Assembly (NCBI GenBank): GCA_964446625.1
Contig: CAYUPH010000003.1
Span: forward strand, 192-64,191
Length of the DNA stretch: 64,000 nucleotides
Source of the DNA: an uncultured Candidatus Saccharibacteria bacterium
GTDB lineage: Bacteria; Patescibacteriota; Minisyncoccia; Phycocordibacterales; CAIRYW01
Direction of reading: 5' to 3'
This document shows positions 3,755 through 61,467 of the stretch, in pieces (the stretch's first letter is position 1; every line of letters begins with the position of its first letter). Below the pieces are notes generated by a model. That model had not been told where the DNA came from and searched no databases. It worked only from the letters and a program-made list of their open reading frames with translations. The position numbers were made by a program, and so were the translations under genes.

Positions 3755-3761
3755 TACTCAA

Positions 3762-3792
3762 AAAACCGCCCCTCTGGCGGTTTTTTGTTTTA
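3762..3792. terminator. bidirectional intrinsic terminator
   Basis: A5-ccgcccctctggcgg-T6: GC-rich hairpin flanked by A and T runs. Confidence 0.7.
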
Positions 3793-10871: not shown

Positions 10872-10890
10872 TTGAATTAAAAGAAAGCAC

Positions 10891-10921
10891 AAAAAAACCG
10901 CCCGAAGGGCGGTTTTTTTGA
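10891..10921. terminator. bidirectional intrinsic terminator between convergent rplI and rpmA
   Basis: A7-ccgcccgaagggcgg-T7. Confidence 0.75.
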
Positions 10922-24340: not shown

Positions 24341-25690
24341 TTAATTCTCTCCCCCTCCCATTTCTACGAACCTTTCGTCGATTCGTTCCATGTCTCGTGG
24401 GAACATTGAAGCTTCTCTAATATTTTTTAGTCCAAGGAGCTGCATAGTAATTCGTTCCGCACCGAATGCGAATCCACCTTCAGGAGGAGCTCCGTATTTG
24501 AAGGCATCAAGAAACATTTTGATTTTCTTTGGATCCATTTTCCATTCTTCAACATGAGCAAGAAGTTGCTTGTAGTCGTTGATTCGGCGTCCTCCTGAAA
24601 GCCATTCTACTCCTCTGCAAAGTAGGTCCATACCTTCGTTTACTTCTGGATTTTCTTGATTTGGGAAAACATAAAATGGTTTCTTTTTTGTCGGGTATCC
24701 ATACACAAAGACAAAGTCTGATCCTGTTTCATTTTTGATAGCTTCACAAAGGTTTCTTTCGTCTTCTGGGTTTAGGTCTTTTTCTCCACGGACATCTCTG
24801 CCAAAAGTAGTAAAGATTTTTTCTTGCGCTTCTTTGAGGCTAAGGGTCGGGGTTTCTGCAATCATTTCAGGGAGCGTCGCACCAAGGACTCGTAGCTCCT
24901 CGCCACATTTTTCTGCAACATTTTTTAAAATTCTTTTTACTGTTCCTTCTGCCATGTCCCGCACATCCCTCCAGCTTTCAATGAATCCCATTTCTGCATC
25001 AAGAGAAAGGACTTCTGTGAGGTGACGAGTTGTCTGTGAAGGTTCTGCTCGAAAGATTTTGTTTACGGAGAAAACTCGCTCGAAGGCTGTCATGACAATT
25101 TGTTTGTAAAGCTGTGGGCTCTGTGAAAGGAAGGCTTTGTGGTCAAAGTAGTCAATTTGAAAAACTTCGCTTCCTCCCTCTGCAACCGCTGGGGTAATTG
25201 AGGGTGCATAAAACTCAAAGAAATTATTTTCTTTCATGTATTCTCTAAAAGAGTCAACGATTACATTTTGAACCTTAAAGATTGATTGGTACTTTGCGTG
25301 CCTTAGAGTAAGTGCTCGGTGATCAAGTTGCACCGGAAGCTCTGGCTCTAGGTTGTCTCCTCCCATATCAAATGGAAGCGACTCGGCTTCTGCAAGAATG
25401 TTTATCCCAAGGATTTCGAGTTCGACGGAACCATTCATTTTGCCTGCTACTTTGTTTTTTTCTGGGCGCTCGTTTACTTTTCCTGTAACCTCTACAACCC
25501 ATTCTTGTCTTACTTTCTCTGCATTTTCTTTTGCGCTAGAGCCAGGAAGAACAACTCCTTGTACTTTTCCTGTCATGTCACGTATGTCGAGAAATATCAG
25601 TTTTCCTTGGTCCCTTCGTACATGCACCCAGCCTTTTACGGTTACTTCCTCCCCTACTTTTGATCCTATGTCTTTGATTAGTGTTCTCAT
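24341..25690 (-). CDS. aspS: class IIb aminoacyl-tRNA synthetase, probably aspartyl-tRNA synthetase (archaeal-type / non-discriminating)
   Basis: N-terminal OB anticodon-binding domain, motif 2 FRAEPSQTTRHLTEVLSLDAEMGF, motif 3 GFAFGAERITM. The upstream T-box UGGC bulge and GAU-A specifier candidate support Asp, but Asn is not excluded. Confidence 0.65.
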   Translation of the reverse strand: MRTLIKDIGSKVGEEVTVKGWVHVRRDQGKLIFLDIRDMTGKVQGVVLPGSSAKENAEKVRQEWVVEVTGKVNERPEKNKVAGKMNGSVELEILGINILAEAESLPFDMGGDNLEPELPVQLDHRALTLRHAKYQSIFKVQNVIVDSFREYMKENNFFEFYAPSITPAVAEGGSEVFQIDYFDHKAFLSQSPQLYKQIVMTAFERVFSVNKIFRAEPSQTTRHLTEVLSLDAEMGFIESWRDVRDMAEGTVKRILKNVAEKCGEELRVLGATLPEMIAETPTLSLKEAQEKIFTTFGRDVRGEKDLNPEDERNLCEAIKNETGSDFVFVYGYPTKKKPFYVFPNQENPEVNEGMDLLCRGVEWLSGGRRINDYKQLLAHVEEWKMDPKKIKMFLDAFKYGAPPEGGFAFGAERITMQLLGLKNIREASMFPRDMERIDERFVEMGGGEN

Positions 25691-26130
25691 TTTTTAAAAA
25701 ATAAATAATAAAGAAAAATCGCCCCTGAAAAACTAACATTGTTAGTTTTTCAGGGGCGATTACGAGTATCGCGGTGCCACCCTGATTTGTAACTCATTTG
25801 TAGGGTTCTACTGTGAAGGATTCCTTCAGTTCTTCCCTGTCCTCGCCGGTGTCTACTCGGGTCGTAGGACTTAATTACTATTGTACACATTTTGTGCCTT
25901 TTGTCATGGGGAGCAAAATGGTGTAGGATTTTTAGTGGCTTGGTTCCATAAAGTGCAAGCGCGAAGGAGTGGTGCCCGTTGGCTGCACTATGGTGCTGAA
26001 TTCTCTTATCCAGGTTTTTTCATGCCTTGAAAGGAGGCTTACCGCGGACATGAAAGCATTCTCTGGATATGTGCGAAGATGCAGAACACTGCGCGGCGGG
26101 AAAAGCGCAGGAGCCCTTGAAGCATCAGCC
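25691..26130 (-). promoter_or_regulatory. T-box riboswitch leader controlling aspS
   Basis: Minus strand carries AAUCAGGGUGGCACCGCG (25770-25788), matching the T-box consensus AAUUAGGGUGGUACCGCG, with a UGGC bulge. AGAGA at ~26060 fits the Stem I AG-bulge/distal-loop region. GGAUAAGAG at ~26003-26011 is a specifier-loop candidate (GAU + A). Terminator hairpin has 21-bp arms (25718-25760) followed by a U-rich tract. Confidence 0.6.
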
Positions 26131-26192
26131 CATTAAAAAAAGAGGGATAAAAGAGAAAATAAAACCCTCACTATAACACTTGATGTTACCTT

Positions 26193-26223
26193 AAGGCGCG
26201 TCATCCTCCGGATGACGCGCCTT
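26193..26223. repeat. perfect 31-bp palindrome
   Basis: aaggcgcgtcatcc-tcc-ggatgacgcgcctt. A weak T-tract follows on the plus strand. Confidence 0.5.
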
Positions 26224-26384
26224 TGACCTTTTACAATTTTAATAAAAGTTATACCATAAATTTGTTTGGAGCTCTTTCTTTGCCTTTTCAGATGTCAAAG
26301 TTAGTCAGGGTGTGGGTCGTCTGTCTAGGTGAAGTTTCGGTGTGTGTTTGGTAGGTTTAAAAGCACACTGAATTGAGCTTCAAG

Positions 26385-26430
26385 AGCTGGTTTCTGCGGC
26401 AGCGGAAACCAGCTTCTCTCTTTTTTATAC
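26385..26430 (+). terminator. strong plus-strand intrinsic terminator with no gene upstream
   Basis: gagctggtttc-tgcggcagcg-gaaaccagctt followed by ctctctttttt. The plus-strand region to its left has no ORF. Confidence 0.6.
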
Positions 26431-26593
26431 AAAGTATCTAGGAATAGTCTGTTAGAATTATTGTAGCAAGGCATATTTCATAACTATACGAGAAAGTCAG
26501 GAAAGACTGTGGGTACGAGTTGTGCTCACATTTCTCGTTCTTGCTCATGGGCGCCTAGGTTTTACCTGGGCGCCCTAGCTTCATTTAGGCTAT

Positions 26594-26622
26594 TGACACT
26601 TTTATATTTTTAATTTAGTATT
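26594..26622 (+). promoter_or_regulatory. consensus sigma70 promoter TTGACA-17-TAGTAT with no ORF downstream
   Basis: Read directly. The ~150 nt downstream hold no ORF over 9 codons and end at hairpin 26744-26773. Confidence 0.45.
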
Positions 26623-26782
26623 CCGAACGGATTCAAAGTGCTTAGAGATGACTGCGCAAAAACACAGAAAATAGACGTGTAGTCAGGCTTCCCCATCCTC
26701 GCTGATGTTGGGAGTTAGACTCTCTTGAGTATTTTGACCAAACCGCCGCGCGTTCCTACCGGGACGCGCGGCAATTCCTTTC

Positions 26783-27337
26783 TTAGAGCCTTACCTTCCG
26801 AAGTCTTTTCCTTGCTTCCTCGTAGTCTGGAAGTATACTCCGAACCTCATTCCAAAAAAGCTTTCCATGATTCATTTGTCTGAGGTGGCACAGTTCGTGA
26901 ACCACAATGTAGTCAAAAAGGTCCTCTGGGAGTGCGTGCATTTTAATATTAAAATTTAAATTCCCACTTACGGAACAACTTCCCCACCTCGAAGACATTT
27001 TTTTAATACTTATCTTTTTGTAGATAAACCCATACTTCGTAGCATAGGCTTCTACTTTTTTGGTGACTATTTCGAGAACCTCTTTTCGTAGTTTCTGAAG
27101 TTCCTTCTTCCCTATCTTTTGTTTCTCTTCTTTTGGTGACTTTTCAATTTGCTCTTTTATCCACGGAGCTTTCTCTTTGAGAAATTTTTCAATAAGAAAA
27201 AGTGGTACATACCGAGGTGCACCGACTTTTACCTTTCCTCCTGGAGCGACTGTGACCCGTATACTTCGAGCCCCGCGTCTTTTCACAAGTGTGTATTCGA
27301 AACTCTCCTCTCCTTTTCCGAGCCTTTTTAACTCCAT
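26783..27337 (-). CDS. YgjP-like (DUF45) zinc metallopeptidase-fold protein
   Basis: HELCHL (HExxH) near the C-terminus, preceded by RWGSC; matches the YgjP/DUF45 pattern. Confidence 0.55.
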   Translation of the reverse strand: MELKRLGKGEESFEYTLVKRRGARSIRVTVAPGGKVKVGAPRYVPLFLIEKFLKEKAPWIKEQIEKSPKEEKQKIGKKELQKLRKEVLEIVTKKVEAYATKYGFIYKKISIKKMSSRWGSCSVSGNLNFNIKMHALPEDLFDYIVVHELCHLRQMNHGKLFWNEVRSILPDYEEARKRLRKVRL

Positions 27338-59139: not shown

Positions 59140-60408
59140 TTACACAGGAAGGTTAGGTGGAGCTTCAGACTTCTTGGCGTCAATTCTTCGAAGGCCAGGA
59201 GTTTTCGCAGCTTCACCAGGAAAGTGAAAGATTGTCGCAATACTCTCCGAACTCATCGTAAAGTAGTGGCTCTTGTGTGGAGCATGGAAAGCAGATCTGT
59301 GCTGGTACGCTTCAAAAATATGGTGTTTTCTGTGTGCAGCTTTTTTACCAAACATGTCTTGCCACGGATAGTCGAATACAGTTATATGCTCAGAGCTTAC
59401 TCCAAAACTGTTTAGGTTCGCTGTGTTGTACTGTCTAAAAGAACCAATAAGACCAGGGATGTTAATAGGGTTAAACTTTTCTTTTGGTGCTAGGTAAATG
59501 ACACGGATAAGAGTATCGAACGCGAGTTTTGAAATATTTTTCTCGATAGCCTCTATTGCATCTTTTTGTCCACGCGAAAGAGATACTCCTGTGATTTTAA
59601 TTTCCCCTGCTGCTTGCACGTCTGCTTGTTTTATTTTCTTTATCTCTTCGTTTGCTCCGTGTGACCAGTCAACTTTATCAAACCATGTTCCTGGTTTCTT
59701 GATTTCTTTTTTGTGACTTCGAACTATAACTTGAAGCCAAATTCTGTCGCCTTGTTTTACTGTTGAAAGATACTCGAAAAATGGTGTCATCGGATCAATC
59801 TTGTATTCTTCTTTTGGATCGTCTCCTAGTTTGTAGTCGTTGTAACTCTTAATTGGGTAGTAGTCAGGTTTGTTTAGCTTGAACTCGACACCAAAAAGAT
59901 CAATCTTTCGAAGGTCGAAATCAATATTTTTTGAGTAGTCGTCTACCTCTCTTACTTCAATGTCTGGATATTGCGCATAGAGGTATGACACAACAACTGG
60001 TTTCCAAAAATCCCATGTCCAAAGGTAGAATTTTATTTCCCCTCCGTCTGATACTAGTTCAAGAGAAAACCAAGGTCTTGTTTTTCCTTTAAACCATCTA
60101 TCTATCCAAGTCGTTTCTCCTGATGTTTGGTAAAGAGAGGTGAGAAAAAGCTCCATGGCAAGAGGTGACTTTGCCACTTCTTGAGGAATGATAAGTTCAA
60201 GTAAAATTGCCGAGTGTGCTTTCTCGTGAATAAATTTGTTTCGGTTATACGTGACAAAAGCCTCAAAAAAAGCGAACCCGAGAAAAACAGGTGCAAGAAT
60301 AATAAAGAAAAAATAGCCGTAGCCGAGTGCTGTCACAAGTAAATTTCCAAAGATTGACCAATCTAAAGATTGCATAGAATATATAATATCAAAAAAAGAG
60401 ACAAACAA
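59140..60408 (-). CDS. hypothetical membrane protein (422 aa)
   Basis: Two N-terminal TM helices and a His-rich C-terminus (HRKHHIFEAYQHRSAFHAPHKSH). Confidence 0.35.
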   Translation of the reverse strand: MFVSFFDIIYSMQSLDWSIFGNLLVTALGYGYFFFIILAPVFLGFAFFEAFVTYNRNKFIHEKAHSAILLELIIPQEVAKSPLAMELFLTSLYQTSGETTWIDRWFKGKTRPWFSLELVSDGGEIKFYLWTWDFWKPVVVSYLYAQYPDIEVREVDDYSKNIDFDLRKIDLFGVEFKLNKPDYYPIKSYNDYKLGDDPKEEYKIDPMTPFFEYLSTVKQGDRIWLQVIVRSHKKEIKKPGTWFDKVDWSHGANEEIKKIKQADVQAAGEIKITGVSLSRGQKDAIEAIEKNISKLAFDTLIRVIYLAPKEKFNPINIPGLIGSFRQYNTANLNSFGVSSEHITVFDYPWQDMFGKKAAHRKHHIFEAYQHRSAFHAPHKSHYFTMSSESIATIFHFPGEAAKTPGLRRIDAKKSEAPPNLPV

Positions 60409-60435
60409 AAAATCCGCCGAAGCGGATTTTTTGTT

Positions 60436-61467
60436 TTATGAGAGTGAGTATCTTCCTTGTTTGTCTTTTTTGAAGTGTTTTGCGTTCTGGAGGTTAACGA
60501 GGATTGTGTTTTCTTTGACGTACCTTTCTTTCAGAACTTTGTCGATAATCTCGTCTTTTGTCAGAGGACCATTTTTCTCAAGGATTTTTGCGATAACATC
60601 TCGCACTACTCCGTTGAGGTATCCCCATTCTGAGAGAGCGTAGAGTCCTCGTCCAACAAGAACAAATCGAGAGTCCTTGATAAGTTCGTTGTGAGTTGTT
60701 GCAACGTGTGCTTTCTTTTTGAAGAGCTTTTCGATTGATTTTGCTACCTCTTTAAAGTGAATTGGTGAACCATGCTTTCGGATTGCAAGGTATGCGTAGT
60801 CTCGAATACCTTTTACAGAAATGTTTTTTGAGTGTGATACTCCCCATTCTCCTAGCGGGTTTCGGTTAATCTTCTTAGAAATTGAAAGCCATCGCTTTAG
60901 AACTTCTTCGTTTTTGTATTCTTCACTAAGGTTTTCAAGGTGTGAAAGAAACTCGGAAATAATTTCTGATTCAGGAAGAATTTCTTCGTCTGCGAGGTTC
61001 TTGTATAGTTTATGAAGCGCTTCTTCTACTTTCTTTGCAAGAGCTTCGTCTACATGCCATCTGTGCTTGAAGTGCTCGTCTTCTTTTAGTTTTTTAAATA
61101 GGTTTCCTAGGACAAGTAGAAAGTTGATTTCGTTTTGTAGGAGTTTGTCTTTTTTTGTAATATGGTTTAGAAAATCTTCTTCAGAAACGAAACCTCCGAG
61201 AGCTACAAAAAGTTTTTTTAGTTCTTCAAAAACAGCGTTTGATTCTTTGTATGCGCTTGATTTTCGAATGTTAGAAAGAGACGCATTTTCAATCTGTCGA
61301 ACTCGCTCTCTTGTAATACCGTATTTGTCTCCAATAGCCTCAAGAGTCATTTTTTCTGGAGTTTTGAGCCCATATCGTGCAATAAGCACCTGCTGACCTC
61401 TCTCTGGAAGGACTCCGACAAGTTTCTTTACGACTGCTTTTGGTTTGAAGTTAAATTGTGATGCCAT
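60436..61467 (-). CDS. sigma-70 region-4-like HTH domain protein
   Basis: N-terminal LPERGQQVLIARYGL…TLEAIG…YGITRERVRQIE matches sigma70 region 4. Long helical C-terminus. Confidence 0.5.
   Translation of the reverse strand: MASQFNFKPKAVVKKLVGVLPERGQQVLIARYGLKTPEKMTLEAIGDKYGITRERVRQIENASLSNIRKSSAYKESNAVFEELKKLFVALGGFVSEEDFLNHITKKDKLLQNEINFLLVLGNLFKKLKEDEHFKHRWHVDEALAKKVEEALHKLYKNLADEEILPESEIISEFLSHLENLSEEYKNEEVLKRWLSISKKINRNPLGEWGVSHSKNISVKGIRDYAYLAIRKHGSPIHFKEVAKSIEKLFKKKAHVATTHNELIKDSRFVLVGRGLYALSEWGYLNGVVRDVIAKILEKNGPLTKDEIIDKVLKERYVKENTILVNLQNAKHFKKDKQGRYSLS

Follow-up and report, generated by a model that had tools for sequence, protein, structure and literature searches.

The 64,000-nt stretch of contig CAYUPH010000003.1 analyzed here, referred to below as the 64-kb window, carries on its minus strand the gene aspS, whose upstream leader is the subject of this work. 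The product is an aspartyl-tRNA synthetase (AspRS) of the archaeal and non-discriminating type that matches the NCBIfam model NF003483 (aspartate--tRNA(Asn) ligase) with 464.9 bits against a cutoff of 353 and TIGR00458 with 369.7 bits, and that contains the Pfam domains tRNA_anti-codon and tRNA-synt_2. An earlier note on this DNA, made from the sequence alone, had described an open reading frame (ORF)-free gap of 1.1 kb upstream of the gene and had explained it by a T-box leader of about 440 nt. The gap is as described, measuring 1,092 nt (25691-26782) with no ORF longer than 55 aa, and no gene is called in it in the versions of this contig that other samples yielded (L146-L148), which are identical in sequence across its whole length. 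The T-box leader, however, is about 183 nt long (about 25873-25691, minus strand) and covers approximately one-sixth of the 1,092 nt, so that it does not account for the gap. A promoter-like site ends 10 nt 5' of the Stem I hairpin, and transcription is predicted to start near 25873, ∼3 nt 5' of Stem I; in related leaders, hexamers resembling −35 and −10 elements are also present, ∼8-12 nt 5' of Stem I.

The leader is probably a miniaturized T-box that senses tRNA-Asp and controls aspS by transcription attenuation, a reading to which we assign a probability of about 0.8. It is founded on the elements recognized in the leader, on their conservation and covariation among relatives, on the fixed place of these leaders before AspRS genes, on a loop triplet that is always a codon for Asp or Asn, and on two mutually exclusive folds and the ranking of their energies.

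In the 64-kb window, all Rfam families, RF00230 included, stay below their gathering scores. The earlier note had proposed RF00230 as a check, and the outcome is divided, in that a permissive search of 1.5 kb returned a match below threshold (25874-25749; 26 bits against a gathering score of 93, E=0.002) in which only the antiterminator was aligned well. The T-box question was therefore decided by a family model built from relatives. This covariance model, R1, was derived from 20 related leaders aligned by MAFFT, the 64-kb window not being among the sources, and it finds the aspS leader at full length (25869-25750) with 75.8 bits and E=4e-16, its sole significant match in the 64 kb. The claim of a T-box leader before a class II synthetase of the Asp type is thereby upheld, the related leaders also standing before AspRS genes, and the T-box identity of the element is solid. 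No second T-box was detected in the 64-kb window by motif or by model. The coordinates of all features are collected in Table 1.

Table 1. Features of the aspS gene, its leader and the adjoining non-coding gap
Feature	Position in window	Strand	Basis
aspS, 449-aa AspRS, archaeal-type, non-discriminating-type	24341..25690	minus	NCBIfam and Pfam
U-rich tract (UUUUCUUUAUUAUUUAUUUUUU...), then short spacer to start codon	25691..25716	minus	sequence
Intrinsic terminator hairpin, 21 perfect bp, 3-nt loop	25717..25761	minus	hairpin search, folding
T-box sequence and antiterminator	25751..25784	minus	sequence, RF00230 and R1 alignments, folding
Linker ACAAAUGAGUUACAAAU	25785..25801	minus	sequence, family comparison
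Stem II	25802..25838	minus	aligned to Stem II positions of RF00230 and R1
Short Stem I, 32-nt K-turn hairpin	25839..25870	minus	R1 alignment, Stem I parse, pair counts
Specifier GAC (Asp codon, 25853-25851) and conserved purine A25850	25850..25853	minus	loop register common to relatives
Promoter-like site ATGACA, 16-nt spacer, TACAAT	25880..25907	minus	10 of 12 consensus positions; consensus match only
Four perfect G+C-rich hairpins, 12-14-bp arms	26193-26223, 26385-26414, 26549-26575, 26745-26772
Promoter-like sites	25901-25929, 26230-26257, 26593-26621	plus	precede three of the four gap hairpins

The T-box sequence AAAUCAGGGUGGCACCGCGAUACUCGUA is read on the minus strand at 25788-25761, adjoining the terminator and with UGGC in its bulge, as had been claimed, and within it GGTGGNACC (25781-25773) occurs only once in the 64-kb window. 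Helix A1 is formed by CAGGG (25784-25780) and CCCUG (25755-25751), and helix A2, which has a 7-nt loop, by GCGAU (25772-25768) and AUCGC (25760-25756); between them lies a bulge of 7 nt, UGGCACC (25779-25773). The earlier note had made its proposal depend on whether the 5' arm of the hairpin could enter into an antiterminator, and the predicted fold of this segment alone is exactly A1, bulge, and A2, with an energy of −10.0 kcal/mol. When the nascent transcript is ended at the terminator loop, the predicted fold consists of Stem I, Stem II, and the bulged antiterminator. Both A1 and A2 (helices 6-7 of the MAFFT alignment) covary among relatives. The competing terminator is the longest perfect hairpin of the 64-kb window; it had been given as a perfect hairpin with 21-bp arms at 25718-25760 and is indeed perfect, but 20 bp lie inside that range and 21 are reached only by counting the flanking A-U pair (25717-25761). 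Its core hairpin has an energy of −32.2 kcal/mol as against −10.0 kcal/mol for the antiterminator. Because the 3' strands of both A2 and A1 are part of its 5' arm, only one of the two structures can form at a time, and neither of the alternative helices has a mismatch. The U-rich tract that the earlier note had described between the hairpin and the AUG at 25690 is present, and no Shine-Dalgarno sequence is present inside or adjoining the terminator hairpin.

Stem I, Stem II and the family of related leaders

Stem I of the aspS leader can be written GUCC-UAC-GA-C-CCG-[AGUAGACAC]-CGG-C-GA-GGAC. Its 4-bp C-stem, 3-nt bulge (UAC), and tandem G.A pairs (25863-25862 with 25844-25843) constitute a predicted K-turn, above which a helix of 3-4 bp leads to the terminal specifier loop. 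The same order is found throughout the family (3-4 bp C-stem, 3-nt bulge, tandem GA/GA, one non-canonical position, 3-4 bp helix, loop), and the K-turn pattern, with compensatory changes in the C-stem, is common to 37 unique relatives; these were compared by structural parse, and a MAFFT alignment of Stem I alone was misregistered on the 3' side. The helix beneath the specifier loop varies in sequence but stays paired, one pair being G-C in 18 leaders, C-G in 16, U-A in 1, and A-U in 1, and a second Stem I pair being G-C in 19, A-U in 9, U-A in 4, C-G in 1, and U-G in 1. In the loop, whose family consensus is CUGACA(A/C), 33 of the 37 unique Stem I sequences carry the triplet GAC and 4 carry AAC, the next base is always A or G, and every downstream gene checked for leaders with either triplet encodes an AspRS. 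The Asp specificity for which the earlier note had argued agrees with the GAC and A of the specifier and with the match of the gene product to NF003483.

The Asn codon AAC replaces GAC at the specifier position in L069, L081/L108, L119, L126, and L060, and the genes checked behind such leaders still encode AspRS, those of L069 and L081 being bacterial-type. Such leaders would be in keeping with a non-discriminating AspRS that has tRNA-Asn as a further substrate and is regulated by it.

Stem II has a lower helix, AGGG/CCCU, and an upper hairpin of 6 bp, UGAAGG-AAU-CCUUCA, together with an S-turn (loop E) in which AGUA (25812-25809) stands opposite GAA (25832-25830); all five of the five lower-helix pairs are changed on both sides among relatives. 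A compact IIA/B pseudoknot (CGG..GCC-CG..GC), just 5' of the linker, is present in 22 of the 39 unique leaders; in the aspS leader, the CCCU of Stem II is joined directly to ACAAAUGAG. Within the linker, AAAUG (25799-25795) and AA (25788-25787) are separated by 6 unpaired nt, AGUUAC, and match the purine flanks, RRRxG...AA, that the motif definition places around Stem III (PMC7583486). They may correspond to these flanks, the hairpin itself having been replaced. Across the family, AAUGAG is nearly invariant, and the gap at the position of Stem III consists of only 5-6 unpaired nt.

Covariation was tested for a proposed structure made up of Stem I, the lower part of Stem II, IIA, two pairs of the pseudoknot, A1, and A2, and the alignment was not fitted to this structure. 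Pairing is found in 93.2% of the cells as compared with 37-45% when the partners are slid by 1-3 columns, two-sided changes occur in 13 pairs and 55 cells, and the covariation score is 0.320 against a shuffled mean of 0.138; none of these values (paired-cell percentage, pairs, cells, or score) was reached in any of 500 shuffles. The number of further standard pair types, 25, shows no excess, the shuffled mean being 24.6 and 255 of the 500 shuffles reaching 25.

Relatives were sought in two ways. A protein-based scan, with one genome per species, yielded 64 loci with relatives of the AspRS, nearly all of them in metagenome-assembled genomes (MAGs) labeled Parcubacteria, Paceibacterota, Nomurabacteria, Kaiserbacteria, WWE3, Peribacteria, and similar, and some labeled "uncultured Gammaproteobacteria/Saccharibacteria." In six of the 64 loci, GGTGG[C/T]ACC[G/A]CG is present 83-120 nt upstream of the start codon, and a seventh leader (L060) was found by R1. 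The distribution among genomes is thus patchy, with 7 leaders in about 58 species-level loci that have an intact upstream region. RF00230 matches five of the first six genome leaders at 32-49 bits, with E down to 7e-8, and does not match the sixth (L024) at E≤0.01, although R1 scores it at 79.1 bits. A metagenome search with the pattern AATGAGN{3,6}AANNARGGTGGCACCRCG retrieved 81 DNA stretches, and in 40 of these an AspRS-like gene lies 75-210 nt downstream of the leader; the pattern fixed UGGC, so that these matches are uninformative on variation in the bulge. Over all loci, R1 gives ∼75-125 bits for short-Stem-I leaders with Stem II and ∼33-74 bits for the minimal leaders described below, whereas canonical long-Stem-I T-boxes caught by the search pattern score at most 45 bits. 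A T-box is not out of keeping with an origin in the candidate phyla radiation (CPR), given the occurrence of the same leader family before AspRS in MAGs labeled Kaiserbacteria, WWE3, and Peribacteria.

The genes behind these leaders are of two types, the archaeal type and a bacterial type that has no insertion domain, and one leader family therefore serves two evolutionarily distinct types of AspRS. Three architectures are present: Stem I with Stem II and the pseudoknot in 22 unique leaders; Stem I with Stem II and no pseudoknot in 2, namely the aspS leader of the 64-kb window and L119; and, in 15, Stem I followed by a purine-rich linker of ∼10-22 nt and the discriminator, with no Stem II. L119 has an AAC specifier and precedes a bacterial-type AspRS; because the same architecture stands there before the other type of AspRS, it represents an independent case and not a one-off deletion.

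Several further observations concern the relatives. Many of the regulated bacterial-type AspRS (L066, L069, L081, L129, and others) have ∼466 aa and align to the NCBIfam model of 590 positions in two separate segments, from which it follows that the usual insertion domain is absent. The 15 minimal leaders (L086, L106, L136, L085, L128, L133, L070, L120, L111, L104, L078, L087, L071, L131, and L093) consist of the K-turn/specifier hairpin, the purine-rich linker, and the antiterminator/terminator, and have no Stem II, pseudoknot, or Stem III; the distance between Stem I and the end of A1 is 94-110 nt, an additional hairpin often extends A2, and these leaders may be the smallest natural T-boxes. 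GGAGG(G/A)G is part of the terminator's 3' arm in L070, L093, L120, L122, and further leaders of Saccharibacteria-like type, and UUUCUCC follows ∼10-30 nt past the U tract, sometimes with a small hairpin between; an additional alternative pairing of these two segments is possible. In L126, the AspRS frame continues for ∼85 residues and then passes into transposase-like sequence (526 aa in total), a fusion that reflects either the insertion of an insertion sequence or an assembly chimera.

Proposed mechanism and alternatives

Binding of tRNA, sensing of its charge, and termination would follow the T-box paradigm (PMC7583486). In the nascent RNA, Stem I, Stem II, and the weak antiterminator would fold first. 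Uncharged tRNA-Asp would then pair through its GUC anticodon with the GAC specifier, and the S-turn of Stem II may clamp the resulting codon-anticodon helix. The discriminator base of bacterial tRNA-Asp is G73, and the free 3' end of the tRNA, expected to be GCCA, could pair with the UGGC of the bulge, stabilizing the antiterminator and allowing RNA polymerase to read into aspS. When the tRNA is charged or absent, the more stable 21-bp terminator would form and transcription would stop in the U tract. That control is exerted on transcription is suggested by the U tract after the hairpin, by the 27 nt between hairpin and AUG, and by the position of the AGGAGG of relatives outside the hairpin.

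A number of observations weigh against this reading. In addition to the low RF00230 score, three domains of studied T-boxes are missing. The distal platform (AG bulge and distal loop), by which T-boxes stack on the tRNA elbow, is absent, Stem I stopping at the specifier loop; 69 Stem I positions are deleted in the RF00230 alignment of the aspS leader, and the R1 family model itself has no platform element. Also absent are the IIA/B pseudoknot, with 21 R1 positions cleanly deleted, and the Stem III hairpin. The platform has been described as essential in transcriptional T-boxes and Stem III as indispensable for the discriminator, and short-Stem-I T-boxes depend on Stem II together with the pseudoknot (PMC7583486); more generally, the elements missing here are reported to be important or essential in the T-boxes that have been studied (PMC7583486; PMC11297988). 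The A2 pair beside the bulge, G25772-C25756, is Watson-Crick (G-C in 19 and A-U in 1 of 20 relatives), whereas A2 is closed in studied T-boxes by a conserved G.U wobble that is described as a steric sensor of the aminoacyl group (PMC7583486). The specifier loop is UAGACA as compared with CUGACA in relatives. The leader is absent from the 23 closest AspRS relatives (L001-L023, 67-73% identity), where what immediately precedes aspS is another gene or an unremarkable intergenic region. Finally, ARAGORN finds no tRNA or transfer-messenger RNA (tmRNA) genes in the 64-kb window, and none of the 145 loci contains a tRNA-Asp or tRNA-Asn gene. The departures from the textbook structure lower confidence that the leader works exactly like the T-boxes studied so far, and not confidence in its membership of the leader family.

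Much of this evidence would also suit a decaying relic that no longer binds tRNA and whose hairpin dampens aspS constitutively or terminates an upstream unit, since elements important in other T-boxes are absent, the loop departs from the family consensus, and the leader was either lost from or never present in the nearest AspRS relatives. This is nevertheless unlikely, because every one of the remaining elements (K-turn, specifier with its A, S-turn, AAUGAG, bulge, A1, A2, and terminator) is intact, L119 has independently the same architecture, and 15 other leaders are smaller still; in addition, a cell could hardly afford a 21-bp terminator that is never relieved ahead of a synthetase gene that is essential and present in one copy. 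It is quite improbable that the hairpin serves instead as a translational sequestrator like that of the actinobacterial short-Stem-I ileS leaders. All short-Stem-I T-boxes described earlier are translational (PMC7583486), and the 3' arm of the hairpin contains AGGGG, but the distance from AGGGG to the start codon exceeds 30 nt, the hairpin ends 27 nt from the AUG with a U tract directly after it, which is the signature of an intrinsic terminator, and L025, L026, and L031 have a separate AGGAGG 6-8 nt before the AUG, outside the hairpin. A chance T-box motif beside an ordinary terminator has a negligible likelihood; although a match to GGTGGNACC is expected in 33 of 100 shuffles of the 64-kb window, the R1 match of E=4e-16 extends over 120 nt that include Stem I and Stem II, RF00230 gives E=0.002, and the position relative to the AspRS gene is the same as in relatives.

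Within the T-box reading, the earlier note had proposed a different anatomy, with a long Stem I helix at ∼26070-25990, AGAGA in its distal region, and a GAU specifier in GGAUAAGAG. The strings AGAGA (∼26064) and GGAUAAGAG (26011-26003) exist, and GAU is an Asp codon followed by A, but both lie outside the T-box, upstream of the promoter-like site, and outside the model matches: the RF00230 alignment begins Stem I at 25874, R1 makes no use of the region, and it has no counterpart in ∼40 relatives, in which Stem I starts ∼10 nt after the −10-like hexamers. Furthermore, GGAU is paired with AUCC in all minimum-free-energy folds tried; the earlier note had itself held that a specifier located in a helix would speak against its proposal, and this is the situation at GGAUAAGAG. 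A full K-turn/specifier hairpin homologous to those of the relatives is already present at 25870-25839, with GAC at 25853-25851 as the specifier, and the long-Stem-I anatomy is therefore very improbable.

The miniaturized, transcriptional tRNA-Asp T-box thus being preferred, a wider proposal may be considered, whose chances appear somewhat short of even: that the aspS leader belongs to an undescribed, CPR-wide class of miniaturized transcriptional T-boxes that present the codon in a loop of 6-7 nt resembling an anticodon loop and capture the tRNA by this loop-loop contact and the helix between NCCA and the bulge, so that these T-boxes can do without platform, pseudoknot, and Stem III and, in the case of 15 relatives, without Stem II as well. 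As a hypothesis only, the loop can be likened to the 7-nt anticodon loop (C-U-NNN-A-N), in which case the loop-loop contact might offset the absent domains. If such a class exists, it would provide a natural sensor of tRNA charge of ∼95-120 nt and would contradict the need for a long Stem I platform in transcriptional T-boxes.

The leader marks its gene as an Asp-specific synthetase that would be under feedback by tRNA-Asp. More generally, T-boxes occur in CPR/Patescibacteria, and the Rfam threshold of 93 bits conceals leaders that score 26-49 bits. A covarying family with intrinsic terminators that has neither platform nor Stem III throughout stands against the requirements set out in a review of T-boxes, in which short Stem I is described for translational T-boxes only (PMC7583486). 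If functional, these leaders would mark the smallest core for tRNA sensing found in nature, which would make them attractive to structural biologists and as a basis for compact engineered switches that respond to tRNA. A transcriptional architecture so poor in domains, and its CPR host phylum, appear to be undescribed; a literature search found no paper linking T-boxes with CPR, Patescibacteria, or Saccharibacteria, but much of the literature lay outside this search, and its negative outcome is no proof that the class is unpublished.

The remainder of the gap

The remaining ∼880 nt of the gap (25900-26782) form a separate region outside the T-box, with no ORF longer than 55 aa, no Rfam family, and no similarity to the 145 related loci, to phages, or to plasmids. 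It is strongly structured, the predicted folding energy being −317.6 kcal/mol for the plus strand (z=−8.4) and −262.6 kcal/mol for the minus strand (z=−5.3; 20 shuffles each), which suggests that the plus strand encodes at least one structured RNA in divergent orientation to aspS. The four hairpins of this region (Table 1) are spaced ∼165-195 nt apart, and that at 26385-26414 is followed on the plus strand by CTCTCTTTTTT. Together with the plus-strand promoter-like sites, this layout looks like two or three small transcription units, and the region may hold plus-strand small RNAs; the hairpin at 26745-26772 may also terminate the minus-strand YgjP-like gene (26783-27337).

A predicted ORF of 28 codons (MKAFSGYVRRCRTLRGGKSAGALEASAH) is located on the plus strand at 26050-26136, inside the long Stem I once supposed there, and GAAAGGAGG (26029-37) lies 12 nt before its ATG. 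The usual terminators of the 64-kb window look like bidirectional hairpins composed of an A-run, a GC-stem, and a T-run, as at 3759-3787, 10890-10920, and 60403-60436.

Comparison with known T-boxes

With the canonical transcriptional T-boxes (RF00230; tyrS and glyQS of Bacillus subtilis), the aspS leader shares the 7-nt bulge of the UGGNACC type between A1 and A2, a stronger competing intrinsic terminator with a U tract, an aminoacyl-tRNA synthetase gene downstream, the K-turn at the base of Stem I, the cognate codon followed by a purine, and the S-turn (AGUA/GAA) in Stem II. It differs from them in having no long Stem I, IIA/B pseudoknot, or Stem III hairpin and in the G-C pair of A2 at the site of the G.U wobble, and, at 26 bits, it is missed by standard annotation.

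The class II T-boxes of actinobacterial ileS genes (Mycobacterium tuberculosis, Mycobacterium smegmatis, and Nocardia farcinica), studied by Sherwood et al. in 2015 and since reviewed, have a short or "ultrashort" Stem I (PMC7583486). Like these, the aspS leader has a truncated Stem I with no elbow platform, a short K-turn hairpin that carries the codon close to its tip, and, alongside, a Stem II S-turn that is presumed to clamp the codon-anticodon helix. The actinobacterial leaders, however, are translational, with a sequestrator over the Shine-Dalgarno sequence, whereas the aspS leader has no such sequestrator and places an intrinsic terminator 27 nt from the AUG. They also need the IIA/B pseudoknot and retain Stem III, neither of which is present in the aspS leader, so that of the decoding module obligatory in class II it has Stem II and not the pseudoknot. 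Gene (aspS), specifier (GAC), and phylum (CPR/Patescibacteria) are different as well.

The glyQS T-boxes, which naturally have no Stem II domain and yet antiterminate transcription, are comparable in this respect with the 15 minimal relatives, but they retain a long Stem I with platform and Stem III, whereas the minimal CPR leaders are devoid of platform, Stem II domain, and Stem III. The NT-box of Clostridium acetobutylicum is a T-box with an Asn specifier that governs the tRNA-dependent Asn pathway, including a non-discriminating AspRS, and is a long canonical T-box with two specifiers. With the four AAC relatives it would have in common that a gene of the AspRS type is governed by tRNA-Asn, whereas the aspS leader itself carries GAC.

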